DNA from: Patescibacteria group bacterium
GTDB taxonomy: Bacteria > Patescibacteriota > JABMPQ01 > JAQVVF01
Direction: 5' to 3'
NCBI GenBank assembly: GCA_028699085.1
Contig: JAQVVF010000002.1
Coordinates: forward strand, 68,557 to 132,556
DNA length: 64,000 nt
In this document: positions 14,303 through 47,999 of the stretch, piece by piece
Numbering within the stretch: position 1 is the stretch's first letter
Layout: each line of letters starts with the position of its first letter
Notes under the pieces: model-generated
What the model was told of the DNA's origin: nothing
The model's database searches: none
What the model saw: the letters and a program-made list of their open reading frames with translations, nothing else
Position numbers and translations under genes: made by a program

Positions 14303-16228
14303 ATGACAAAAACAAAAATAAAAACTAAACCAAAAACAAAGACAATGATTTCCATTGCCTTACTCGCATTTATAATTTCCGGCTTAGGTCTCGCTGCCGG
14401 AATTTTTTATAATGTAAATTATCCAAAATCAAAATGCAAAAATGCGTTTAAGATTGTCAAATCAAGCAAATGCCAAGGATCATACAAAAAATATACTGTT
14501 GTATCTTTTTGTTCAAAAAATAAAACAGTCCAAAAATTAGCAATAAAAAAATTAAAGAAAAATAAAAAGTGCTATAAATCTTATAAAATTATTAAGAAAA
14601 AAGCCTGCAAATCTTACTACAACAAAACAATTAAATTGTACTGCCCAAAACAAACTGAAAATAACATTAATCAAAATATTAATCAGCCAAACGAATCAAA
14701 TAATAGCACTAATTCACCAATAGGCGAGAATGCCAGCTTGAATCAAAATGAATCAACAGATAACACAGATGACAATGTATCAATTGACGATCCGATTGAT
14801 GAAGAATTCGAAGATATCGAAGATGAGTTGCCAGCAGAACCTATTACAGATTTAGAAGATAATTTAGCTGACATTAATCTAATCAACAAACCAGGATGGC
14901 CAAAAAATAAAAATCATGACAATGAAAAAATCCAATCCATTATTGCTGCAAATATCGACAATCAAGGATCAAAAGAAATAATCAACCAATCTCTAATTGA
15001 TGGCTATAGCACCTTAAGACTTTATGCTTGGCAAAATAATGGACAGCTCTTTAATAATAATTGGCCGATAGAAATTACCAATTGTCCAGCAGGCTGTGTT
15101 CCAAATCAACAAATCATTTCACATAATTTTAAAGCTGTAAATTTTCAAAATAGAGTCTCCAACTTTGCAACTCCTATTTCCATTGGAAAAAGCAATGAAA
15201 TAATTACTAGTATCTATAAAGCCGGACCTCCAGGTTTTTGGTTTCATGATTTATTCAGTTTCAATAAAGACGGACAGAATAATTCCTTCTGGCCAAAAAC
15301 AAAAGAAAAAAATACTACAAATCTAATTATCTCCAACTTAGAAAACAATCAAAATACAAATGTTCTTTTTGGCAGTTCCAATAATACCTACATTCTCAAT
15401 AATCAAGGTGCTGATATTTTTAATAATCTTTCTAATAAAAAAAGTTTTGCACTAACTATTGATGATTCAATTCAAGCTAATCCTAAATTAATTTCATTAG
15501 GCTTTGACTCTGGATCTCCTACATTGCAAATATATGATACAGCTGGAAACAATTTACCAAGTTTTCCTAAACAATTACCTGAACTAAAATCATACTCATC
15601 TTCTCCTTCTTTGACTCTTTCTGATCTCAATAACGACGGATCAAGAGAAATAATTATTCTTGGCGAACATACTCAAGATGGCCTATATTTAAATGCAATC
15701 CAAAATAACGGAAATTCTTTATCTGGATTTCCAATTCAGATTTCTGCTAACCTTACTTCAGATAGCGGTTTAAAAATTTCTAGTGCTGACATTGATCAAG
15801 ACAACAACAATGAAATAGTTTTATTTTTTAGAAATACTGATGAAAACATTATTACTTTTAAAATAATCAATTACAATGCTACGGTCTCGCTCACTAGCCA
15901 ATTGCCTGGAAACAAATTTAGCGAGCCTTTGCTAGCAAATCTAAACAACGATAATAATTTAGAGATTGTCACCACAATCGACAACTCACTATACATTATT
16001 GATACCGCTGAATTAGCTTTTAGAAAAATTGATGCAGCAGGCGATGATCCAAACGAATTTGGCTATTTTCCAACTGTGTTCTTAACTGATTTAGATAATA
16101 ATAATCGCATTGATTTTGTTTCCAACATTGGCAACAAAACAAATGCTTGGGAATTAAATTTCTCAACTAATAACATGCCTTGGCCAATGCCAGATCAAAA
16201 CAATCAGCGCACCAGAATCGCACCATAA
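14303..16228 (+). CDS. Large surface protein: N-terminal TM anchor, Lys/Cys-periodic region, Asn/acidic linker, FG-GAP-like Ca-binding repeats
   Basis: Repeats DLNNDGSREIIIL, ADIDQDNNNEIVLF, ANLNNDNNLEIVTT, TDLDNNNRIDFVSN (DxNxDGxxE/D-like). Confidence 0.6.
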   Translation: MTKTKIKTKPKTKTMISIALLAFIISGLGLAAGIFYNVNYPKSKCKNAFKIVKSSKCQGSYKKYTVVSFCSKNKTVQKLAIKKLKKNKKCYKSYKIIKKKACKSYYNKTIKLYCPKQTENNINQNINQPNESNNSTNSPIGENASLNQNESTDNTDDNVSIDDPIDEEFEDIEDELPAEPITDLEDNLADINLINKPGWPKNKNHDNEKIQSIIAANIDNQGSKEIINQSLIDGYSTLRLYAWQNNGQLFNNNWPIEITNCPAGCVPNQQIISHNFKAVNFQNRVSNFATPISIGKSNEIITSIYKAGPPGFWFHDLFSFNKDGQNNSFWPKTKEKNTTNLIISNLENNQNTNVLFGSSNNTYILNNQGADIFNNLSNKKSFALTIDDSIQANPKLISLGFDSGSPTLQIYDTAGNNLPSFPKQLPELKSYSSSPSLTLSDLNNDGSREIIILGEHTQDGLYLNAIQNNGNSLSGFPIQISANLTSDSGLKISSADIDQDNNNEIVLFFRNTDENIITFKIINYNATVSLTSQLPGNKFSEPLLANLNNDNNLEIVTTIDNSLYIIDTAELAFRKIDAAGDDPNEFGYFPTVFLTDLDNNNRIDFVSNIGNKTNAWELNFSTNNMPWPMPDQNNQRTRIAP

Positions 16229-16984: not shown

Positions 16985-17206
16985 ATTGTTTAATTAATAT
17001 TTTTATGTTTTTTTATTCTTATATAATCTCTTTCTCTTTTTAATTTTAAAGGAGGAGCAACTCTCAGCCTATGTGATGTTCGATAGGCTACCTTTCCATG
17101 ATGAGTTTTGCTAGAAGCGTAATTTTTCATAAATTTATTTTAACACAAAACCCTGTTATAATATAGTAGTAATAATAACTATTAATCTATATTTAATAAA
17201 TATTTT

Positions 17207-18034
17207 ATGAAAAGATTTTTACTCGCCATCACTTCAACGCTTTTTTTACCAACTCTTGGTTTAGCTTTTTTGTTTCTCAATATCACCCACACCATGCTCT
17301 CGCCAAATATTTACAAAAAAGCTTTGACTGATGCCAATGCTTATGAACGTTTATCAAAAATTAATATCAATCAATTATTGTCTATTTTTTCCAAAAACAA
17401 AAATTTAGATATAATGCAAAAAGTCAAAATTAAAGTTTCCAAAGAAACATTGCAAAAAACAGTTGAGCCAACTATCGATTTCTTTTTTGTTGATGTTTTA
17501 AGAAATGGCAAAAAAACAATTATCATTGATTTATCTGATTTTCAAAAAGATTTTTTAGGCCAATATAATATTCCTATTTATCTTTTTCCAGAAGGAATTA
17601 TTCCGCAAAATTATTCTATTCCCATTCCTGGAACAATCTTGCTATTTCAACCATTTATTGCCATCTTGCCAATTCTAACTTATTTATTTTTTGCACTCTC
17701 TTTCTTTTATTTATTTTTAATAATTCTTTTCAAAAAAAATAATCGCGGAAAATTAAGATTGCCAGCCTATCTTATTTTTAGCTTAGGATTAACTTATCTA
17801 ATTATTTATTTTGTTGCTTGGTTTTTAGATCCATCCAAATATATCTCATTAGGATCGCAAAATTTTGCCCAGATTGCTCTAGATGTTTTAAATAATCTAA
17901 AAGTTGTTTTTATCAGACCTTATTTAATTGAAGGCATCATTTTAATAAGCATCAGTATAATTGCATTTATTATTTCTTTTTTTATTCCTCAAGAAAAAAA
18001 TAAATTAATTTTGCCCAACAAACCAATCAAATAG
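17207..18034 (+). CDS. Hypothetical membrane protein
   Basis: 275 aa with N-terminal signal-like segment and 3-4 C-terminal TM helices. Confidence 0.45.
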   Translation: MKRFLLAITSTLFLPTLGLAFLFLNITHTMLSPNIYKKALTDANAYERLSKININQLLSIFSKNKNLDIMQKVKIKVSKETLQKTVEPTIDFFFVDVLRNGKKTIIIDLSDFQKDFLGQYNIPIYLFPEGIIPQNYSIPIPGTILLFQPFIAILPILTYLFFALSFFYLFLIILFKKNNRGKLRLPAYLIFSLGLTYLIIYFVAWFLDPSKYISLGSQNFAQIALDVLNNLKVVFIRPYLIEGIILISISIIAFIISFFIPQEKNKLILPNKPIK

Positions 18035-18042
18035 TTTGAAAC

Positions 18043-18075
18043 AAAAAACGGATCTTTCCAGAATCCGTTTTTTTA
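18043..18075. terminator. Bidirectional terminator between convergent genes
   Basis: A6-CGGAT-ctttccaga-ATCCG-T7. Confidence 0.6.
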
Positions 18076-18096: not shown

Positions 18097-18879
18097 TTAC
18101 ATCGGCCTCAATGTTCCAGAAAAAATTTGCCAAGCCAAAGCTGATTTTGCAATCAAACTTAATAGAATATAAATTGATTCGCCATACAAATAATTTTTCC
18201 AAGGCCCAACTTTCCTATACTGCAAAAACATATTTAAAGCAAAGATATCAAAAAACACAAATATCGAAATCAAAATTCCATAAACAAATTTTGGAATTAC
18301 ATCACCAACGGAAGAAACTGCTCCAGCAAAATAAAGATAAATCACAATCCATGGCACGATTCCCATAATGCAACCAAAAACAAAAGCAGTCCAATTGATC
18401 TTCGTCGTCAATTGATTATATTTTTCCATCATTAGCCCAAATAAAATCATTGCCGAATTAACAGTAAACATTAATATCAAGCTTGATAAGTCATACATAC
18501 CGCATAGCATTGAAATAATCACAATCATTAATGAAGAAGAAATAGCATATTCATACCATCTGATATAATTGATGTGCTTTTTTAAATTTCTTTCATAGAA
18601 TTTAAATAATACTGTTGCAGTCAAAAAATGAGCTAATGCTGAAAGAAATAAGAACATCGCTACCATCGGACCAATTCTCAATTCTGCAACTTCCTTTATA
18701 ACTGTTGTTATTGCTTTTGTTGCCAAATCAAAACTCAAATAAGATGTCGTGATTGGCAATTTAAAATCATTGCTCAACCACAACATTAAGCAAGCTTGAA
18801 TCAAATGGAAAAAACCCATCACTGCATTATAAATCCGCAGCTTGCGATAAGTTTTTTCAGAACCTGTTTTTGTTGTCAT
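18097..18879 (-). CDS. Heliorhodopsin-like 7TM retinal-binding protein
   Basis: 7 predicted TM helices, basic cytoplasmic N-terminus, RWYEYAISSS in TM3, LSLIAKSALAWQIFSG in TM7 with central Lys. Confidence 0.7.
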   Translation of the reverse strand: MTTKTGSEKTYRKLRIYNAVMGFFHLIQACLMLWLSNDFKLPITTSYLSFDLATKAITTVIKEVAELRIGPMVAMFLFLSALAHFLTATVLFKFYERNLKKHINYIRWYEYAISSSLMIVIISMLCGMYDLSSLILMFTVNSAMILFGLMMEKYNQLTTKINWTAFVFGCIMGIVPWIVIYLYFAGAVSSVGDVIPKFVYGILISIFVFFDIFALNMFLQYRKVGPWKNYLYGESIYILLSLIAKSALAWQIFSGTLRPM

Positions 18880-18930
18880 TTTTATTTTTAAATTATTTTA
18901 TAAAGAAGCAATTTATGTATCTCTATTCTT

Positions 18931-19098
18931 ATTTGCAATTTTCTTTTGGCATTTCCATATTTGGGTTGCCATGCTTCACCCACTTACCTTTTTCACAAAC
19001 CCAAGAATCTTCTGGAGTAGAAAATCTTAATATTAAAACAATTCCAATTCCTAAAATAATTATTGCCCCAATAATAATTAAAAGTGTTTTTTTCATTA
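18931..19098 (-). CDS. Small (55 aa) signal-anchored protein, not in ORF track
   Basis: MKKTLLIIIGAIIILGIGIVLILRF... then CEKGKWVKHGNP...NCK; sits between TerC-like gene and heliorhodopsin on the same strand. Confidence 0.3.
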
Positions 19099-19105
19099 AT
19101 TATCA

Positions 19106-20038
19106 TTAAACTTTAATAAGCTTTTCTTGTTTACCATGCCTGTAAGACAAATATAAAAAGAAAACTAAAAGCGAAATTGTAGATACCGGAGCAATCCAGA
19201 ATGGGAATTCTTTGCCAAAAGATTCTAGAATCATAATTGCGCCAAGAACTCCAATCGAATACATTGCGCCATTTTTTAAATAAGCAAATTTTGCAATCAC
19301 ATCTATTCCTTTGATTGTAAGCTCTCTAACTACAAGCGCGCCCAAACCATTACCAATCAAAATCAAAGGCACATAAATAGTAAAAGCAAAAGCACCAATT
19401 ACACCATCAATAGAAAAAGAAGCATCTAATACTTCTAAATAAAATATCTTGCTCCATGCGCCAACACTGCTTGATTTCAGCAATGTTTTGCCTTTTTCTT
19501 CGGCATTTTTCTTCAAACCATCAGTAATAAAAAAGGCAGTTGCGCCGATTGAAGTCGATAATGCCATTGCCGGATTTCCAGCGCTAACAGACAATCCAAT
19601 CATTACTGTAAAAAATACTGAGGCAATTGCATAAAACCAAACTCCTTGATGAAATATAATATGTTCAACTAAAAAAGCATATTTCTTTTTTTCCAGAAAT
19701 AGCCAAGACAAAGCAACAAACAGCAAATAAATTCCACCACCAGATAATAATAATGGCTTTGATTCTTCCAACGCATCTTTTATAGCTGGATCATTTGAAA
19801 AAGCAAATGTTATAACTTCAAAAAATCCTAGATCAGTATTAGCTAGCCAAACAATCAAAAAAGGCAAGATACCTCTAACCAAAAATACTGCAATCAACAA
19901 TCCCCAAAACAAAAATATTTTCCGAAATCTTTTCGGTAAAGTTTGTAAAACATGAGCATTAACAATTGCATTATCAACACTTGAAATGATTTCAAAAACA
20001 CACAAACCTAAAACAATAACTAGATCTTGTAATAACAT
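19106..20038 (-). CDS. TerC/DUF475-like integral membrane protein
   Basis: Duplicated SSVDNAIVNAHVL and SFSIDGVIGAFAF motifs in TM helices; ~8 TM. Confidence 0.5.
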   Translation of the reverse strand: MLLQDLVIVLGLCVFEIISSVDNAIVNAHVLQTLPKRFRKIFLFWGLLIAVFLVRGILPFLIVWLANTDLGFFEVITFAFSNDPAIKDALEESKPLLLSGGGIYLLFVALSWLFLEKKKYAFLVEHIIFHQGVWFYAIASVFFTVMIGLSVSAGNPAMALSTSIGATAFFITDGLKKNAEEKGKTLLKSSSVGAWSKIFYLEVLDASFSIDGVIGAFAFTIYVPLILIGNGLGALVVRELTIKGIDVIAKFAYLKNGAMYSIGVLGAIMILESFGKEFPFWIAPVSTISLLVFFLYLSYRHGKQEKLIKV

Positions 20039-20105: not shown

Positions 20106-20294
20106 CTATTTTGTCTCACCACGAAAACCATATCCAGGTTTAACCTTTTTCTTAGCATGATGTTTTTTTTCAGCTTTTATTGTCTTGCCGATATTCTGTA
20201 CATCTTTAAATTCACCTGTCCTTTCTCTCTTAGTGTACAATTTTTTACCACGTCTTTCCATTTTTGTCCTAAAGACACCTTTTCTTTTTGGCAT
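20106..20294 (-). CDS. Small highly basic protein (hypothetical)
   Basis: 62 aa, Lys/Arg-rich; no family recognised. Confidence 0.3.
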   Translation of the reverse strand: MPKRKGVFRTKMERRGKKLYTKRERTGEFKDVQNIGKTIKAEKKHHAKKKVKPGYGFRGETK

Positions 20295-20403
20295 AATTTT
20301 AAATTATTAATACTTATCCGCCAAAGTTCAATAGAACAAAGACGGAAAAAAATATACCTAGATAATCTAGGTATATTCTAACATAATATTTAAAAAATAT
20401 TAA

Positions 20404-21888: not shown

Positions 21889-22407
21889 TTAAATTTTTCG
21901 ACTATCATATGCCCAATGCAACACTGCCTGTCTTTGTCTTTTCCGGCAATCCCAATCACCCTTAAAACAATTTTTCTTAATCTGAGCAATATGGCGCTTT
22001 ATTGCCTTCCAACGCTTTATCTGACGCTGATCATCGTTGTGTCTTCTTCCCAAATAGTATCTACAATACCATTGAAACCAACCTCTAGGATCATCAACAT
22101 GAATCCATCCTTTAGCTCTCCAAACTGACAAAGGCTGACTAGCATTAATGCCAAAATAATTCAATTTTGGATCATGAAATTCATGACAAAGCTTTGCTTT
22201 TTTATACCAATCTACTGGAAATTCTTTTTTACAATCAGTCATATACTTTCCGCCAAAAACACCCATTTCTAACATTTCTTTCGGCGTAAGTTCGGGCCGA
22301 AATTCAGGATCAAAATTTTTACCCATTGGTTCTGTCAAATAATATCGATAATTCTTCTGCATTAAATCATTAACTACCACCAATTTTTTATACTTTTTAT
22401 TTTTCAT
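21889..22407 (-). CDS. Hypothetical Trp/Cys/Arg-rich 172-aa protein
   Basis: ORF with protein-like composition (GWIHVDDPRGWFQWYCRYYLGRRH); no family recognised. Confidence 0.4.
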   Translation of the reverse strand: MKNKKYKKLVVVNDLMQKNYRYYLTEPMGKNFDPEFRPELTPKEMLEMGVFGGKYMTDCKKEFPVDWYKKAKLCHEFHDPKLNYFGINASQPLSVWRAKGWIHVDDPRGWFQWYCRYYLGRRHNDDQRQIKRWKAIKRHIAQIKKNCFKGDWDCRKRQRQAVLHWAYDSRKI

Positions 22408-22565
22408 ATTAATATATTTTATTTTTCTTCAAAGACACTTCTTAATTCATCTTTTCTCTCCTTAAAATTTTCTTTCGGTTCCTTACTTTTTTTTATGCTC
22501 TTTATATCTAAAGTATATCAAAAATCTAATCAACAAAAAATCCCCACACAGGAGGATTTTTAATT

Positions 22566-23579
22566 TTATTTTATTTTTAAAATCTTACTCGGCGAATTAA
22601 ACATCGCATTCATCAAAGATTCAGCCACATGAAAAGGCTTGCCTCGATATGGCACTTCATGAATATCAAAACCAGGCATGTAATTTATTTCAATTATTCC
22701 AAATTTTTCAAACTTTTTAATATCAGAAGCAATCAAATCAATCGCGCAAAATCTTAATTGAAAAATTTCCGCAATTTCTACTGCCAACTTTTTATATTTT
22801 GGATTTACTTCACTATCACATTCAAATGATCTTCCTCCAGTACTAACATTAGCATTCTGTCGCAAAAAAACTTTGTCATCTTTCACAACAACATTATCCT
22901 CAGTTAATTTCTTTTCTCTCAAATTTCTTCTGAATTCAAAATCATTTACAATTGGACATAATGGCTGATCTTTGCCTACTCCTGGCTGATCATTATATTC
23001 GTCAATTAATTGTCTGATTGTTTGCTTACCATCTCCATCAACATAGGCAGGCTCACGTCGCAATGATGTTAACACTTTTCCGTCCATCACCAACAATCGA
23101 TAATCACAACCAAAAAGATATTCTTCAATCAGAAAAGAATTCGGTCTGCCTTTTTTACGACGATTATATTTGTAAACCTCTTTAATTGCTCCAATCAAAC
23201 ATTCCTTATCTTTTATTCCAACAGTTACTGCATGTCCTTGACTGCCATCTATTGGTTTGACCACAACAGGAAATTTAATAATTTTCTGATCAACCATCTG
23301 CAAAGTCTTGCGCATATTTTTCAAAATCCAACCCTTTGGATTCGGAATTTTATGTTTATTCAAGATCAATTTTGCCAAAGCTTTATTACCAGAAACAGTG
23401 CAAGAAACATGGCTATTCAAATCAGGCACATGCCATTTTACATAGACATTTTTACCTTTTTTACTGAATATTCTTAAACCTCTAGCTTTATCAACTAGCT
23501 CAACATCAACACCATTTTTCTCGGCTGCCGATAATAACGCTCCCGTGCAATTAAATTTCGAATACGGTATTTTTTCCAT
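22566..23579 (-). CDS. ATP-grasp family ligase (cyanophycin-synthetase/RimK-like N-terminal type)
   Basis: VVVKPIDGSQGHAVTVG, EEYLFGCDYRLLVMDGKV, ATP-grasp style motifs. Confidence 0.6.
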   Translation of the reverse strand: MEKIPYSKFNCTGALLSAAEKNGVDVELVDKARGLRIFSKKGKNVYVKWHVPDLNSHVSCTVSGNKALAKLILNKHKIPNPKGWILKNMRKTLQMVDQKIIKFPVVVKPIDGSQGHAVTVGIKDKECLIGAIKEVYKYNRRKKGRPNSFLIEEYLFGCDYRLLVMDGKVLTSLRREPAYVDGDGKQTIRQLIDEYNDQPGVGKDQPLCPIVNDFEFRRNLREKKLTEDNVVVKDDKVFLRQNANVSTGGRSFECDSEVNPKYKKLAVEIAEIFQLRFCAIDLIASDIKKFEKFGIIEINYMPGFDIHEVPYRGKPFHVAESLMNAMFNSPSKILKIK

Positions 23580-23717
23580 GATTTAAAACTTTCTTTATAT
23601 TTTTATATAAAAAGACACTCTGTCCAGACTGTCTTTTTAGAAAAACTTGATTATTTGATTATTATGATATAATAACAAAAATTAAATAATATGTCAAGTT
23701 TGCAACTTTTTATCACT

Positions 23718-23788
23718 TCGGGGACCCGGGAATCGAACCCGGTCTACATCCACCCCATGGACGCGTACTACCGGTATACTAGTCCCCG
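23718..23788 (-). tRNA. tRNA-Pro (anticodon GGG)
   Basis: Manual fold: acceptor CGGGGAC/GTCCCCG, D arm GTAT/GTAC, anticodon stem CGTCC/GGATG with loop AUGGGGU, T arm CCGGG-TTCGATT-CCCGG; 71 nt, CCA not encoded. Confidence 0.8.
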
Positions 23789-23901
23789 ACTTAAACATTA
23801 TTATATGCTTTAACAACCGCAAAATCAACAAAAAAAAAGAAGCTATATATAACTTCTTACATAAAAAAACAAAAAATATCATAGATCAAAATTAGAATTT
23901 T

Positions 23902-24555
23902 CTATTCGATTACTTCACATCTTATTGTCGGCTTGTTGCTCCATACGTACACCGCAGTAAGTGTAATATCAGCAACTGTCTCACTACCAACTGTTTGATA
24001 AAAACTAGTTTGGTACACATTGAAACGCAAAGAATCACTTCCTATAGACCTTTTGCTTCCATCATCTTCAATAATAAAACATTCGGAATCAACAAATTTA
24101 CTTTCTTTCCCATTGAGCGGAGCTTCTACTTTGACCTCATAACCACCAATCAATAAATTAGAAAAAGAATATGTCCCATCAAAATCTGGCGTATCAATTC
24201 CTTCATATTGGCAAAGAGGATTAGATCTACAAGCATCTATTAAATCGCTGTTATTGCCCTTATAGCTATACCGTATTCTCAGTTCCGTTTCAAAATCATT
24301 ATATTGCCCATTACATTCATGTTTATAAGTGTCTTCAACAAATACGCATTGTATTTTTCTACCTTCTTTCATGGCAGAATAAGGAATAACGCCTCCTCCC
24401 GGAAACCTGATATATATACTACCAGACACGCTTCCAAACTGATCTTCTGACAAAGTAATGGTTTGATTTTGACTCTGATCTTGTTCACAAGACAACAAAA
24501 CGCTTATCAAAACAAATATCACGACACTGAAAAATCGAGTCTTGTTCTCTAACAT
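23902..24555 (-). CDS. Putative lipoprotein, Cys-rich secreted
   Basis: Signal peptide ending LLSC (lipobox-like) from internal Met MLENKT; 6 further Cys. Confidence 0.45.
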   Translation of the reverse strand: MLENKTRFFSVVIFVLISVLLSCEQDQSQNQTITLSEDQFGSVSGSIYIRFPGGGVIPYSAMKEGRKIQCVFVEDTYKHECNGQYNDFETELRIRYSYKGNNSDLIDACRSNPLCQYEGIDTPDFDGTYSFSNLLIGGYEVKVEAPLNGKESKFVDSECFIIEDDGSKRSIGSDSLRFNVYQTSFYQTVGSETVADITLTAVYVWSNKPTIRCEVIE

Positions 24556-24891
24556 TCTCCCTCCTCTTTTGGGTTTCAACTATCACGAAATAATTTTCTA
24601 AAGATCTTTCTTTACATAAATTAATTTTCTTTAAACATTAATTTACATTACAACACTTTTCTATTTTGTCAATAAAAAAAGCCACATTGCTGTAGCTCTA
24701 CAAAAAGAACAAATTAACCACGAAGTTTCAAAAAATTCAATCTCTTATCTTTCGTTTTTCTCTGAATCGGAACTGTCAAAAATTTTTTCTTACAATGCTC
24801 AAAAGGAATACCTTCGCCTCGTCTTGTTTGATTTAACATAAAAACAGAATCTACCGACAAATGGTTGCTGAACAAAGTAATGAGCAATGCT

Positions 24892-27045: not shown

Positions 27046-28767
27046 TTAATCCATAAAAGAACAACTTGTCATTGCCGAATTAGATCGGCCATGAACAATA
27101 TAACCATCAGAGATTGGAATGCAAGTCACTGTATTTCCGCCAAAACTAGAGCTATTTGCATCATTATCAAGCCAATACCAAACACAAATTCTCGTCCGCA
27201 CATTTTCTTTGTCCGCCTTTTTATTAGCTGGATCAAAAATCATCATTTCATCAATTACCATCTCGCAATATTCTTGAGCAATAACAGTTCGTTGTTTTGC
27301 CATTTCCGCAAATGTTTTCACTAGCTTTCTCCATGTACTCCGCATCATCCCCTTACTAATTGCCACAGCATGTCCGCCAGCAGCTTTGTTATCACCACCC
27401 GACAACTTCAGCACTACTTCCGCATCCAATCTTTTTCTAGCCTGTCTAATTTTTACAAACCAATTTTCTCGACCAGACATCACAAAAATTTCTCGCCCAA
27501 CATTTTTAAACATTGTTACCATCTTTGTGGATTCAGGATCAGCCATTTTCCATCCTCTCGTTGACTTTGCCAAAGCCATCAAAGACTTCAAATCTCCCAA
27601 TCCTAAAAATATCTTTTTTCCTAGTTCCAAATCTTTTTTATCTCCCAACTCACGAAAACCAATCAGTTGCAAATTATTATCAAAAGCAAACCAATATTCC
27701 CGAATCTGCATATCTGAAAGTTCCTGCATTGATTCATTAGAATATTCAACGCCCTTCCAAATAAAATTGTTTCCTTTCCAAACAACTGTATAGGCAAAAA
27801 AATTTTTCAATTCAACAAAACCATCGCTTCCCAAAAATTTGATCCATTCTTCATTCAAACGCTCATCAAATAACCATGCCATCAATTCTTTATAATCCAA
27901 AAAAGTCAGCAGATTTGGATGCAGTAAAACTTTGCCATCAAAATAGGCATCAATAATCTTCTTTTCAATATCTGCTGCAAATACTGCCATCCTGTTTTTC
28001 TGTAAATCATTTTTGTCAATTTCAGAATATTCTTTGAAGACTCTTTCCACCAAATCAAGTTTTTTGCCTTTCAAATAAACTCCATCATCTTTGACTTCTG
28101 CCAGAAAAGATATCCCAAACAAAAAAGTCAAACCAAATTCTTTTCCGTATTCTTCAAACAGCTTTGTCAAAGCCTGCTGTTCCGGACCATAACCATCGCG
28201 CCAAGGAGTCAAAAGAATTCCCACATTTCCGCCATTTGGCAACAAATCATGGATAGCTTCGACATACTTTTTGGCAATTGGCTCAAAAAATTTTTTGTCA
28301 GGGAAAAAATTACGCGAAATAATATCAATTACTGCTCCATAACCAGAACCAGTTGCACCCAAAGTAAATTCATTAATCTTCAATCCTTCAGCAGTTCTGA
28401 TTGCATCAATCCGAATTCTTTTTGCCAAAATTACGTTTTTTCTTTCCAATTCTTTTTTCCAAATCTCAATCTGCAATTTTGACCGACCGCAACACAAATC
28501 CTGCCACAGCCAAGAATATTCGCCATTGCTTGATCTCCTCGCCAAATCAACACAACCTCTCAAAAATCTTGGAATCAGATCTTCAAGCCTTTTCAAAGTT
28601 GCAATCTCTCCACAAGTCAAAGCATAAGTTTCCAGCCCAATTCTTGCCGTATAATTTTTTGGCATAGTCCCAATTTTTCCCCAATAAAGACCTTGTTCCA
28701 AATATTCCTTTTCCATTTGCCTACCCAAATCATCATAATCAAACAGCTGTCTGCTCGTTCCCTGCAT
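27046..28767 (-). CDS. Large (573 aa) hypothetical protein with atypical codon usage
   Basis: Long ORF, protein-like composition, G/C-ending codons unlike neighbouring core genes; no family recognised. Confidence 0.5.
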   Translation of the reverse strand: MQGTSRQLFDYDDLGRQMEKEYLEQGLYWGKIGTMPKNYTARIGLETYALTCGEIATLKRLEDLIPRFLRGCVDLARRSSNGEYSWLWQDLCCGRSKLQIEIWKKELERKNVILAKRIRIDAIRTAEGLKINEFTLGATGSGYGAVIDIISRNFFPDKKFFEPIAKKYVEAIHDLLPNGGNVGILLTPWRDGYGPEQQALTKLFEEYGKEFGLTFLFGISFLAEVKDDGVYLKGKKLDLVERVFKEYSEIDKNDLQKNRMAVFAADIEKKIIDAYFDGKVLLHPNLLTFLDYKELMAWLFDERLNEEWIKFLGSDGFVELKNFFAYTVVWKGNNFIWKGVEYSNESMQELSDMQIREYWFAFDNNLQLIGFRELGDKKDLELGKKIFLGLGDLKSLMALAKSTRGWKMADPESTKMVTMFKNVGREIFVMSGRENWFVKIRQARKRLDAEVVLKLSGGDNKAAGGHAVAISKGMMRSTWRKLVKTFAEMAKQRTVIAQEYCEMVIDEMMIFDPANKKADKENVRTRICVWYWLDNDANSSSFGGNTVTCIPISDGYIVHGRSNSAMTSCSFMD

Positions 28768-47000: not shown

Positions 47001-47274
47001 AAATAATTTATTCTATATATTAGAACTTAAAATTATTGCCCAAAAAGCAAAAGTTAAATATATCAAGACAAAGCAAATTAATCAGCCAGACGGAAAAAAT
47101 TTTAATCGTTTTGTTATTAACTTCATTGGACAAACAAATTACGAAAAAGCATATCAATTAATCAAAAAAAATCCTCAATGGGATATTGAAGATACTGAAA
47201 TAAAAATAAACCAGTCTGATCTTGGACCAGACTGGAAAAATTCATTAAAACAAAGTTTACAATTTTTTATTTAA
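44089..47274 (+). CDS. mfd: Transcription-repair coupling factor Mfd
   Basis: GDVGFGKTE (Walker A), LLILDEEQRFGV (DEEQ), helicase C motifs, TRG-like region; 1061 aa. Confidence 0.92.
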   Translation: MLEQLAKTLSSNKKTVFTGICEQAKPYIITKLIPPENQNQPIFYFVKNHQLALFTYYNLKNWQHNTIARIFKPIEEKSLNLDNEKIRQNFIEKQNFLSDISENKPGFYVIPIEHIDSSCPKINNFEKNFSSATKNELIDPNDLAKDLTSQGYERATNAVSKGYFSKKGGLIEIFPINKKYPVRIEFIGNRIEEIQLFDPKNRKGLEKIDLIFIPPIKTNDSNGKLSDYLKLTKKAIAIINDPQSLKESIDPFSYKPYQQFEKTISELTQIIIQSFPEEKTIDLDFSSIPNYSNNLLALKKDLQKYQDFKIIIFTQEEKIIKKIFANLNIDPSEIIFEKKEYLKNITGFKSNQHKLLFLTDNEIIQEKTENKKRINEAFISELKINDFLVHEDHGICLFKGTTKRIIDKIEKEYLILEYANNDKLFLPVEYSEKITKYIGQSHPKINRLHTASWLELKSKIKKRTEIIAKDLLKIYASREKSQGFTFSADTEIQKELENSFPYQETPDQIKVIKEVKDDMEKKKSKKPMDRLICGDVGFGKTEIALRAAFKATQDKKQVAILCPTTILAKQHFDNFKNRLENFDLKIAVISRFQSKLQQQDILEKLSTGQIDIIIGTHRLLSTDIKFKDLGLLILDEEQRFGVKHKETIKKLKANIDILALSATPIPRTLNLSLSGLRDISIISTPPPGRQSVINYIKPYSEDTIYNAFKKELDRNGQIYFLHNKVQTIQAATEKIKNLLKKYNKPISVAFAHGQMPENNLEKIMAEFYDKKIDILIASSIIENGLDIPNVNTIIIDNASNFGLADLYQLKGRVGRGQKQAFAYFLYKSTELKEKARRRLEALLEAKELGSGFQLALRDLEIRGAGNILGKEQSGAVTTVGLNLYCRLLNQAIQNLKSGQEKTTEEKISPTLDLPLSAYLSEKIFPNFEKRLKLYQQITNIENINELEQQKNNLLKDIVNNSAEANTQINYLNNLFYILELKIIAQKAKVKYIKTKQINQPDGKNFNRFVINFIGQTNYEKAYQLIKKNPQWDIEDTEIKINQSDLGPDWKNSLKQSLQFFI

Positions 47275-47999
47275 TTTTTTACTTGAATGTTTTCAAGCAA
47301 AGCATCCATGTGCTTTATATTATTTTCAGTATAATAATCTTCTGCTTCTTTTGTTGGAAAAGCTTGACCAGGAGTAATTGTGAATACTTTATTGCCAGCA
47401 GAAAAGAGATACTTGATTCCTAAAATACCATATTTTTGATCAAATTCATCTGTAACTATAACTTTTAAAGCATTAATTTTTTGATCCTTACCAATCATAA
47501 CACTTTCTAATTCTAACAAATTATCTTGGTCAAAATTATAAGTTATAACATCTCTTAGAGATTCTTTTGCATCGTTATTAATAACGCCAACTCCGAATAT
47601 TCCAAAATCATAAAAATCATATTTTCTTTCACCAGGAATATCAATTTGTCTTACCTTTCGACTTTGTTCTAATACTTCAGGATATAAGAAAGAAATTCCT
47701 TGAACATCAAATTCCAACCAATCAGCAGTTACATTTTTGCTCTCATTTAAATTTACATTTTCATTTACAGCAGTATTTTCATTAACATTTACTTTTTGTT
47801 CATTTACCTTAATTTCTTCTATTTTTTTATCTTTCTTTAAACTAATATAGTTCTTAAATTCAATATCACTTGTAACTAAAAAAGCAATTAAATATCCTCC
47901 TAAACCTAAAACCAAAACACCAAAAATTATTCCCAAAACAATTTTTAATGTTTTTTCTCGATTTTGCTTTTTTTGTTCTTGATTTTGTTCGTTAATCAT
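47271..47999 (-). CDS. Membrane-anchored hypothetical protein
   Basis: Single N-terminal TM, Asn/Val-rich linker, ~150 aa C-terminal domain. Confidence 0.4.
   Translation of the reverse strand: MINEQNQEQKKQNREKTLKIVLGIIFGVLVLGLGGYLIAFLVTSDIEFKNYISLKKDKKIEEIKVNEQKVNVNENTAVNENVNLNESKNVTADWLEFDVQGISFLYPEVLEQSRKVRQIDIPGERKYDFYDFGIFGVGVINNDAKESLRDVITYNFDQDNLLELESVMIGKDQKINALKVIVTDEFDQKYGILGIKYLFSAGNKVFTITPGQAFPTKEAEDYYTENNIKHMDALLENIQVKN

Follow-up and report, generated by a model that had tools for sequence, protein, structure and literature searches.

A canonical heliorhodopsin gene downstream of a DUF475/TerC-family gene in a Patescibacteria genome

A 64,000-nucleotide stretch of a Patescibacteria genome (GenBank assembly GCA_028699085.1, contig JAQVVF010000002.1, positions 68,557 to 132,556 of the forward strand; the window in what follows) carries a gene for a seven-helix membrane protein that resembles the heliorhodopsins (HeRs), next to genes for a TerC-like membrane protein and a very small membrane protein. 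The locus raises the question of whether the gene encodes a true HeR and whether its neighbors are the partners through which the protein acts. The best overall explanation, which we regard as fairly probable, is that a native, canonical HeR of the Candidate Phyla Radiation (CPR) is the last gene of an orf62-DUF475/TerC-small55-HeR cluster and has a role in the response to light or photo-oxidative stress.

Sequence and predicted fold of the heliorhodopsin

The gene is annotated as follows.
18097-18879, minus strand: heliorhodopsin (HeR), 260 residues, recognized by Pfam, NCBIfam, phmmer against PDB sequences, the AlphaFold2 (AF2) model and Foldseek

The product matches the Pfam Heliorhodopsin family (PF18761) over the full profile, positions 1-242 of 242, with E = 4.3e-101 and 337.7 bits against a cutoff of 26.7. 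It also matches the NCBIfam equivalog NF038020, 'heliorhodopsin HeR', at 348 bits against a cutoff of 100. The profile search assigns the HeR family and not another seven-transmembrane family. A phmmer search of PDB sequences places TaHeR, the heliorhodopsin of Thermoplasmatales archaeon SG8-52-1 (PDB 6is6/7clj/7u55), at the top (6is6, E = 8e-87) and 48C12 next (E = 1.5e-68).

The diagnostic residues are in place. The phmmer alignment with 9ljj_A, a 48C12-type chain, pairs Glu110 with Glu107 and Lys245 with the retinal lysine Lys241. Glu110 and Lys245 belong to the motifs R107-W-Y-E110-Y-A-I-S-S-S and L240-S-L-I-A-K245, and the counterion motif reads RWYEY here and RWVEY in 48C12. Glu107 of 48C12 is the functional counterion (PMC10434121), and SLIAK is among the commonest CPR HeR motifs (PMC9166423). 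Four residues before Lys245 stands Ser241, which gives SxxxK and not the DxxxK of type-1 rhodopsins. His25, His84, Glu110 and Lys245 are invariant in an alignment of 15 HeR sequences. The original prediction of a glutamate in helix 3, a lysine in helix 7 and no type-1 aspartate is thus borne out residue by residue.

The AF2 model has a mean predicted local distance difference test score (pLDDT) of 85.8 and consists of seven transmembrane (TM) helices and two short loop helices. A β-hairpin in extracellular loop 1 (ECL1) is formed by strands 40-51 and 56-68. Foldseek superimposes the model on 6is6 with TM-scores of 0.91/0.94, and type-1 rhodopsins score 0.5-0.64 at 10-15% identity. A Kyte-Doolittle script mis-segmented TM1, and topology was taken instead from the helices of the AF2 model and the crystal structure of the homolog. 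By a hand count on the AF2 helix boundaries, the N-terminus together with loops 2-3, 4-5 and 6-7 carries about 14 Lys and Arg residues and the opposite side about six, a distribution compatible with a cytoplasmic N-terminus. As in TaHeR, 48C12, AbHeR and OcHeR, the protein would insert with its N-terminus in the cytoplasm.

TaHeR is the nearest solved structure. It is 54% identical to the window protein over 254 residues and shares with it the counterion glutamate, the Schiff-base lysine, SxxxK, the paired histidines and the ECL1 β-hairpin. Asn216-Met217 in TM6 agree with TaHeR and not with Val212-Gln213 of 48C12. The two proteins differ in host, which is bacterial here and archaeal for TaHeR, and in a 5-residue insertion, AVSSV, in the TM5-TM6 extracellular loop of the window HeR. 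The likeness to 48C12 (PDB 6su3/6uh3/9ljj) extends to family and fold, and Glu110, Lys245 and His25 align to Glu107, Lys241 and His23. His84 lies within the LSALAHF/LSALFHF segment aligned to 48C12, and we take it to be His80 of that protein. At 46-47% identity and a TM-score of 0.83-0.89, 48C12 is not the closest relative, and the original prediction, which likened the protein to 48C12, has to be amended in favor of TaHeR. The heliorhodopsin assignment itself is confirmed by the profile matches and the likeness to TaHeR. Taken together, sequence and model identify a canonical, native CPR heliorhodopsin with its predicted retinal lysine and counterion.

Proton transport by a viral HeR is cited in PMC11109279 and PMC12873467, which prompts the alternative that the window protein is an ion-transporting rhodopsin like viral V2HeR3; a decaying relic from a dark habitat is a further form of this alternative. 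Both are highly improbable. A protein 54% identical to TaHeR keeps all of the conserved HeR residues, and its ratio of nonsynonymous to synonymous substitutions (dN/dS) against relatives is 0.04-0.05, a value that points to strong purifying selection.

Sequence relationships identify the host as a Patescibacteria (CPR) bacterium. The best HeR matches that carry names come from Patescibacteria, Berkelbacteria, Dojkabacteria and Nomurabacteria, a metagenome-assembled genome (MAG) labeled 'Patescibacteria group bacterium' encodes a protein with 100% identity to the product of a nearby gene, orf172, and Pfam finds the CPR-typical DUF5654 and DUF5661 in the window. HeRs from CPR are already documented: 86 CPR genomes carry 115 rhodopsin sequences, all but 17 of them inferred HeRs (PMC9166423). 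The window is core chromosome, with genes for FtsZ, FtsA, ComEC, HisRS, Der, Mfd, DprA, TopA, RelA, ParAB, SHMT and GlmS. Gene content in the first 14 kb was judged through the syntenic, Pfam-annotated contig L085 and not by a direct Pfam scan, and this synteny places S12, S7, EF-G and EF-Tu there. The GC fraction at 18-20 kb is 0.312, inside the window range of 0.27-0.35, and the locus is syntenic in relatives, in agreement with the view that it is native and host-like in composition. No retinal or carotenoid gene (blh, crt) is found among about 40 window open reading frames (ORFs) scanned against Pfam, which matches the earlier impression that none is visible in the window.

A side observation concerns several Chloroflexi-type loci (L014:9833-10783, minus strand; L026; L033; L123; L124), in which HeR is adjoined by another rhodopsin-like gene, a divergent one whose product shares about 22% identity with the HeR of the window. 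Here and below, L numbers designate the HeR loci and other contigs used for comparison.

Organization of the gene cluster

The features of the cluster and its borders are listed here.
17207-18034, plus strand: 275-residue membrane protein, convergent to HeR (ORF, syntenic in the lineage)
18040-18075, minus strand: intrinsic-terminator hairpin after the HeR stop codon (fold of -14.1 kcal/mol, z = -2.8)
18929-19096, minus strand: small55, a 55-residue signal-anchored peptide (conserved ORF, dN/dS)
19106-20038, minus strand: DUF475/TerC-family (LysE-superfamily) multi-pass membrane protein, 310 residues (Pfam, NCBIfam)
20106-20294, minus strand: orf62, a very basic 62-residue protein with 23 Lys and Arg (ORF, conserved in L085 and L004)
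20345-20380, minus strand: terminator hairpin after the DEAD-box helicase gene, 13-bp stem and U7 (RNA fold)
21889-22407, minus strand: orf172, a highly conserved 172-residue soluble protein whose homologs recur beside HeR

Genes on the minus strand run in the order orf172 (22407-21889), DEAD-box helicase (21771-20404), orf62 (20294-20106), DUF475, small55 and HeR. The spacers are 67 nt between orf62 and DUF475, 9 nt between DUF475 and small55, and 49 nt between small55 and HeR. The terminator after HeR is made of an A-run, the stem ACGGAU...AUCCGU and a U-run, and it is common to the convergent gene. At the other end, the segment 20295-20403 folds with -30.6 kcal/mol (z = -6.2), and none of 200 shuffled sequences is equally stable. 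The helicase terminator divides an orf172-helicase unit from an orf62-DUF475-small55-HeR unit, and RNA folding finds no internal terminator in the spacers of the latter. With terminators at both ends and none inside, a single orf62-DUF475-small55-HeR transcription unit is plausible, and orf62 is possibly its first gene. The suggestion that the three co-directional neighbors form an operon fits this arrangement. A promoter scan was set aside as uninformative, the sites being no commoner than in shuffles of this AT-rich genome; co-transcription accordingly keeps the status of a prediction.

The comparison set for these genes comprised 170-175 HeR loci drawn from 80 GTDB species representatives, 80 metagenome contigs and the contigs of the closest HeR homologs. 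Within it, L004 (HeR 91% identical) and L085-87 (HeR 99% identical; three contigs from different samples) are the nearest relatives of the window.

The tiny membrane protein, which the original prediction had proposed from a frame missed by the ORF track, is a real gene by the evidence of conservation. A single hydrophobic segment at residues 5-23 forms a predicted N-terminal TM helix, followed by a C-terminal tail of about 30 residues with two cysteines (WVCEKGKWVKHGNP...ENCK). The frame is kept in L004 and L085, substitutions are mostly synonymous and dN/dS is 0.10-0.15. Searches of Pfam, NCBIfam, PHROGs and PADLOC return no match, and no relatives occur in the other 170 HeR loci. We also observed that L085-87 have a 1-nt deletion after the ATG that removes the small55 start codon (L085:9840-9860 against window 19085-19096), with the downstream frame 97% identical; start loss with an intact frame implies either that translation begins elsewhere or that a homopolymer was misassembled.

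The other small genes are less informative. The product of orf62 is 100% identical in L085 and 85% identical in L004, and has no family match in Pfam, NCBIfam or PHROGs. The 275-residue convergent protein is 93% identical in L085 and 54% in L004; it has no match in Pfam, NCBIfam, PHROGs or PADLOC and none in other HeR loci.

The DUF475/TerC-family neighbor

The 310-residue protein scores above the Pfam gathering thresholds for both DUF475 (E = 4e-45, 155.2 bits against 27) and TerC (E = 7e-21, 75.1 bits against 27.8), and the earlier description of it as TerC-like is upheld. It passes the NCBIfam model PRK14013.1-2, 'hypothetical protein', at 392.6 bits against 386. A crude scan gives eight hydrophobic segments, with two pairs overlapping or abutting. 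We know of no DUF475 member with a characterized function. The TerC proteins, which belong to the LysE superfamily of membrane proteins and carry a conserved metal site, export Mn and metalate secreted enzymes (PMC10550928). By analogy, the window protein is predicted to be a putative divalent-metal (Mn2+-type) transporter. MeeF and MeeY of Bacillus subtilis, which carry the conserved metal-binding site, share with it the Pfam clan, the TerC-domain match and the multi-pass membrane type (PMC10550928). Unlike them, the window protein falls in the DUF475 branch (PRK14013), and its gene has no yybP-ykoY riboswitch upstream: Rfam at gathering thresholds finds neither a Mn riboswitch nor another RNA element there.

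When the window is compared with L085, an otherwise near-identical genome, the DUF475 gene stands out as a divergent island with sharp borders (window 19110-19950 against L085:8850-9782). Nucleotide identity is 66-83% inside this gene and 94-99% on either side of it, and the dS values are 1.08 for DUF475 and 0.20 for HeR. The low identity and high dS indicate allelic replacement by recombination, and the allele was swapped without breakage of the gene arrangement.

Heliorhodopsin neighborhoods in other genomes

The window DUF475 protein was used as the query against the HeR loci (tblastn, E<=1e-3; phmmer, E<=1). A DUF475 gene lies upstream of HeR in L004 and L085-87 only. The DUF475-small55-HeR triad is kept in these loci despite the replaced DUF475 allele and differing flanks; in L004, PFK and flavodoxin genes lie upstream and DUF378 downstream.

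Several observations weigh against the favored reading of the locus. Neither tblastn nor phmmer detects a DUF475/TerC relative in the roughly 165 other HeR loci, and none is found next to HeR in CPR relatives with 68-80% identical HeRs, including the nearest outgroup at 76%. The three triad-keeping genomes are closely related, and the shared order may be plain inheritance. Immediate same-strand neighbors of HeR fall into 116 Pfam families among 128, a heterogeneity so extreme that the prior for any single adjacency is low. Promoter-like matches number 17 against 21.4 +/- 4.8 in shuffles, with no enrichment, and the search for retinal genes covered 64 kb of the genome.

Linkage of DUF475 to HeR as a general feature is rejected, the tblastn and phmmer searches having matched the window lineage only. 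The DUF475 gene is co-directional with HeR, close to it and separated from it by no terminator, but it does not recur across independent lineages: the linkage is confined to loci with 91-99% identical HeRs, and the sole outside support is a literature case in Cryobacterium. A linkage confined to one lineage is weak evidence for a coupled membrane process, and the earlier inference of such a process is a weak one.

The literature case is close. Kim et al. (2024, Nat Commun 15:4306, Suppl. Data 9; PMC11109279) distinguish 10 recurrent helR operon classes, and one of these, 'TerC family protein', comes from four genomes of Cryobacterium. As in the window, the gene of a TerC-superfamily membrane protein lies upstream of and co-directional with helR; the Cryobacterium gap is 66-67 bp and the genes are predicted to be co-transcribed (PMC11109279). 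The hosts differ, being Patescibacteria here and Actinobacteria there. The window gene scores best as DUF475 and not as TerC proper, and it is separated from HeR by small55. With the Cryobacterium class catalogued and the linkage here confined to a lineage, the DUF475-HeR cluster is neither unprecedented nor widely conserved.

These data bear on the alternative of a dedicated module for light-gated export of metal or for metalation, built from DUF475/TerC, small55 and HeR. In it HeR would bind the transporter within the membrane and use light to tune the flux of Mn2+ or another divalent metal, and small55 would serve as an accessory subunit or be exported as a client. The close packing of the co-directional genes between two terminators, with a spacer of 9 nt from DUF475 to small55, the survival of the triad through flank rearrangement and allele swap, and the independent Cryobacterium pair with the same gene order all speak for it. 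The precedents of a HeR that modulates a membrane ABC transporter (PMC11109279) and of TerC proteins that export Mn and metalate secreted proteins (PMC10550928) are likewise in its favor. It has to be set against a linkage seen in one shallow lineage and the lack of an Rfam match, be it to a Mn riboswitch or to a regulatory RNA of another kind. The idea that divalent-metal transporters are a common theme near the HeRs of CPR was considered as well, with CNNM near HeR in L089 and ZIP near HeR in L003 beside DUF475, and was dropped as unsupported, each case belonging to a single lineage. The module as a whole is quite unlikely, and direct functional coupling of HeR to DUF475 is scarcely less so.

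Other HeR neighborhoods carry genes of stress responses. The commonest immediate neighbors are CarH-like MerR-B12 regulators (5 of 128), SDR (4), and DegV, AhpC, PAP2 and hemerythrin (3 each). L088 and L094/95, whose HeRs are ~70-74% identical, have an operon of rubrerythrin, an extracytoplasmic function (ECF) sigma factor, a 250-residue membrane protein and HeR, followed by MsrB/MsrA. The 250-residue protein is anti-sigma-like and has no Pfam match, and L093 retains it alone directly upstream of HeR. This arrangement may be a light-to-sigma-factor route; no copy of the rubrerythrin-ECF sigma-250-residue protein arrangement was found in the window. Among the CPR relatives with 68-80% identical HeRs, L001/L002 have genes without a Pfam match on both sides of HeR, and L091, L117 and L174 have an orf172 homolog as its neighbor. 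For reference, the rubrerythrin-ECF sigma-HeR operons lie at L088:4058-6774 and L094:1463-4172, and regulators of the CarH/LitR type (MerR and B12-binding) occur at L114:366-1682 and in L116, L120, L024, L063 and others.

The orf172 family

An unplanned lead came from orf172, the only window gene with homologs that recur immediately beside HeR in other lineages. In the window it lies about 3 kb upstream of HeR. In L091, L117, L174/175, L133 and L150 a homolog shares the strand of HeR at a distance of 16-78 bp, and in L122 one small DUF5652-like gene intervenes. The coordinates of these homologs are as follows.
L091:1868-2374, orf172 homolog
L117:535-1041, orf172 homolog
L174:3868-4371, orf172 homolog
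L122:8974-9480, orf172 homolog
L150:310-822, orf172 homolog

The loci span three HeR clades that are 52-56% identical to one another, and orf172 follows HeR in part of them and precedes it in the rest. The family is large, with at least 8000 clusters at 90% identity and 2483 at 50% identity, and about 80% identical across Planctomycetes, Chloroflexota, Omnitrophica, Geomonas, Woesearchaeota and Patescibacteria. The protein has no match in Pfam (even at E<=10), NCBIfam, PHROGs, PADLOC or PDB sequences. Its AF2 model is confident, has no fold match in the PDB and finds only an unnamed homolog in BFVD. Fusions are uninformative: one to DUF5872, and one 1696-residue protein that has P-loop/STAND-type NTPase domains and a sub-threshold match to DUF6582.

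A second context is found on Rhizobium and Sinorhizobium megaplasmids, where the orf172 homolog overlaps the end of a TspO/MBR gene by 4 bp within the order fasciclin-DUF378-TspO-orf172. In Mesorhizobium, TspO-orf172 is divergent from ECF sigma-anti-sigma-fasciclin. Some of these companions also adjoin HeR: DUF378 directly follows it in L004:6172-6378 and fasciclin directly precedes it in L081:3745-4143. The tspO gene of Rhodobacter capsulatus is induced by photo-oxidative stress, and the R. sphaeroides fasciclin gene RSP_1409 has positive log2 fold changes in a photo-oxidative-stress gene table (PMC7074977). The rhizobial loci are L176:4489-5483 (R. etli p42e), L178, L179 and L181 (Mesorhizobium).

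These contexts raise the alternative that orf172 is the ancestral or functional HeR partner in the clade, light-regulated or a signal relay, and that the DUF475/small55 adjacency is recent and incidental. Pairing in three clades and in either gene order speaks for it, and the nearest outgroup of the window lineage, chosen regardless of orf172, also shows the pair. A rough estimate of chance immediate adjacency is ~0.3 events per 165 loci, against at least three independent events observed. The translational coupling in rhizobia is to TspO, likewise a small chromophore-binding membrane protein. The window itself is less favorable, with orf172 3 kb from HeR in a separate transcription unit behind a strong terminator. 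The pair is patchy in clade A, where it is missing from L090 and L001, whose HeRs share 85-88% identity with the L091 and L174 proteins, and it is absent from all 80 HeR loci of the GTDB representatives. Three orf172 homologs picked at random, from Geomonas and from MAGs of Chloroflexota and Woesearchaeota, have no HeR or TspO within 5 kb, and the fold and family searches return no functional match. We hold this alternative to be doubtful, and a true functional link between HeR and orf172 likewise.

The wider form of the idea is equally doubtful. Small membrane sensors that bind a chromophore might have their cytoplasmic partner or effector in the orf172 family; the sensor would be HeR in CPR and further lineages with small genomes, and TspO in rhizobia. 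The family might join fasciclin, DUF378 and ECF sigma/anti-sigma in a conserved light or photo-oxidative-stress module. The HeR-orf172 pair of the window would then have been pulled 3 kb apart and the HeR captured by the DUF475/TerC-small55 operon.

Separately, orf172 homologs of 31-45% identity occur in large phages (145-290 kb) of Vibrio, Flavobacterium, Yersinia and Cobetia (records H16-H30; for example Cobetia phage Carin-5 29117-29650 and Yersinia phage YerA41 28701-29186), where they are annotated as hypothetical or 'structural protein'.

Other features of the window

The sole Rfam match in the window is a tRNA.
23717-23789, minus strand: tRNA-Pro, beside an ATP-grasp (RimK-like) gene

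Synteny with L085 ends directly upstream of orf172 (window 22470-23800), where the window has the ATP-grasp gene and tRNA-Pro and L085 has DUF3175, a 239-residue ORF, ZnuA and an ArsR-type regulator. L085 has an additional DUF5652 gene near window position 17005. A 641-residue ORF at 14303-16228 (plus strand) is Asn-rich and probably encodes a surface protein; the gene at the syntenic position of L085 shows no more than a weak FG-GAP match. Three window ORFs on the minus strand have no Pfam match: 27046-28767 (573 residues), 23902-24579 (225 residues) and 47271-47999 (242 residues).

Discussion

The reading of the locus as a native CPR HeR that closes an orf62-DUF475/TerC-small55-HeR cluster takes its mechanism from characterized homologs. 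For some HeRs a function is now established, and the statement of the original prediction that none is known is out of date. AbHeR binds and regulates an operon-encoded glutamine synthetase (PMC9529153), OcHeR binds and modulates the operon-encoded membrane ABC transporter OmrDE (PMC11109279), and a study on photolyase is cited in PMC11109279. In both operon systems the HeR is encoded with a light-modulated partner, and this model is adopted for the window HeR. The systems differ in that the partner families are not the same and the candidate partner in the window is not conserved across relatives.

By analogy with these proteins, the window HeR would bind scavenged all-trans-retinal and work as a non-pumping photoreceptor. 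HeRs take up external retinal rapidly, and the Saccharibacteria (CPR) that encode rhodopsins lack blh (PMC9296517). Photo-isomerization would lead to a long-lived state that alters the activity of a partner by direct contact. A light sensor or regulator that acts by partner contact is the likely role of the protein. The DUF475/TerC-type transporter, perhaps with small55, would be a candidate target or a co-regulated function, and Mn2+ handling under oxidative stress is a possible, speculative link between the two.

The physiological theme is most likely a response to light or photo-oxidative stress. The grounds are the rubrerythrin, ECF sigma, Msr and AhpC genes near sister HeRs and the published enrichment of redox genes around HeRs (Bulzu 2021, PMC8612252; Chiriac 2022, PMC9166423).

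The locus adds one canonical HeR to a phylum with catalogued HeRs, in the already listed TerC-helR class. For the HeR itself the finding confirms the annotation and leaves understanding unchanged. The value of the locus is comparative. It supplies a second, phylogenetically independent arrangement of a TerC-superfamily gene followed by HeR, which makes that class slightly more credible. It also exposes orf172, a small, soluble, confidently modeled protein of an extremely conserved family that sits beside both HeR and TspO. HeR function is established for few partners, and orf172, as a recurrent and easily expressed candidate, would be directly testable by the pull-down, ITC and activity assays that served for glutamine synthetase and OmrDE. 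Its pairing with HeR is the only part of the locus that could open something new.

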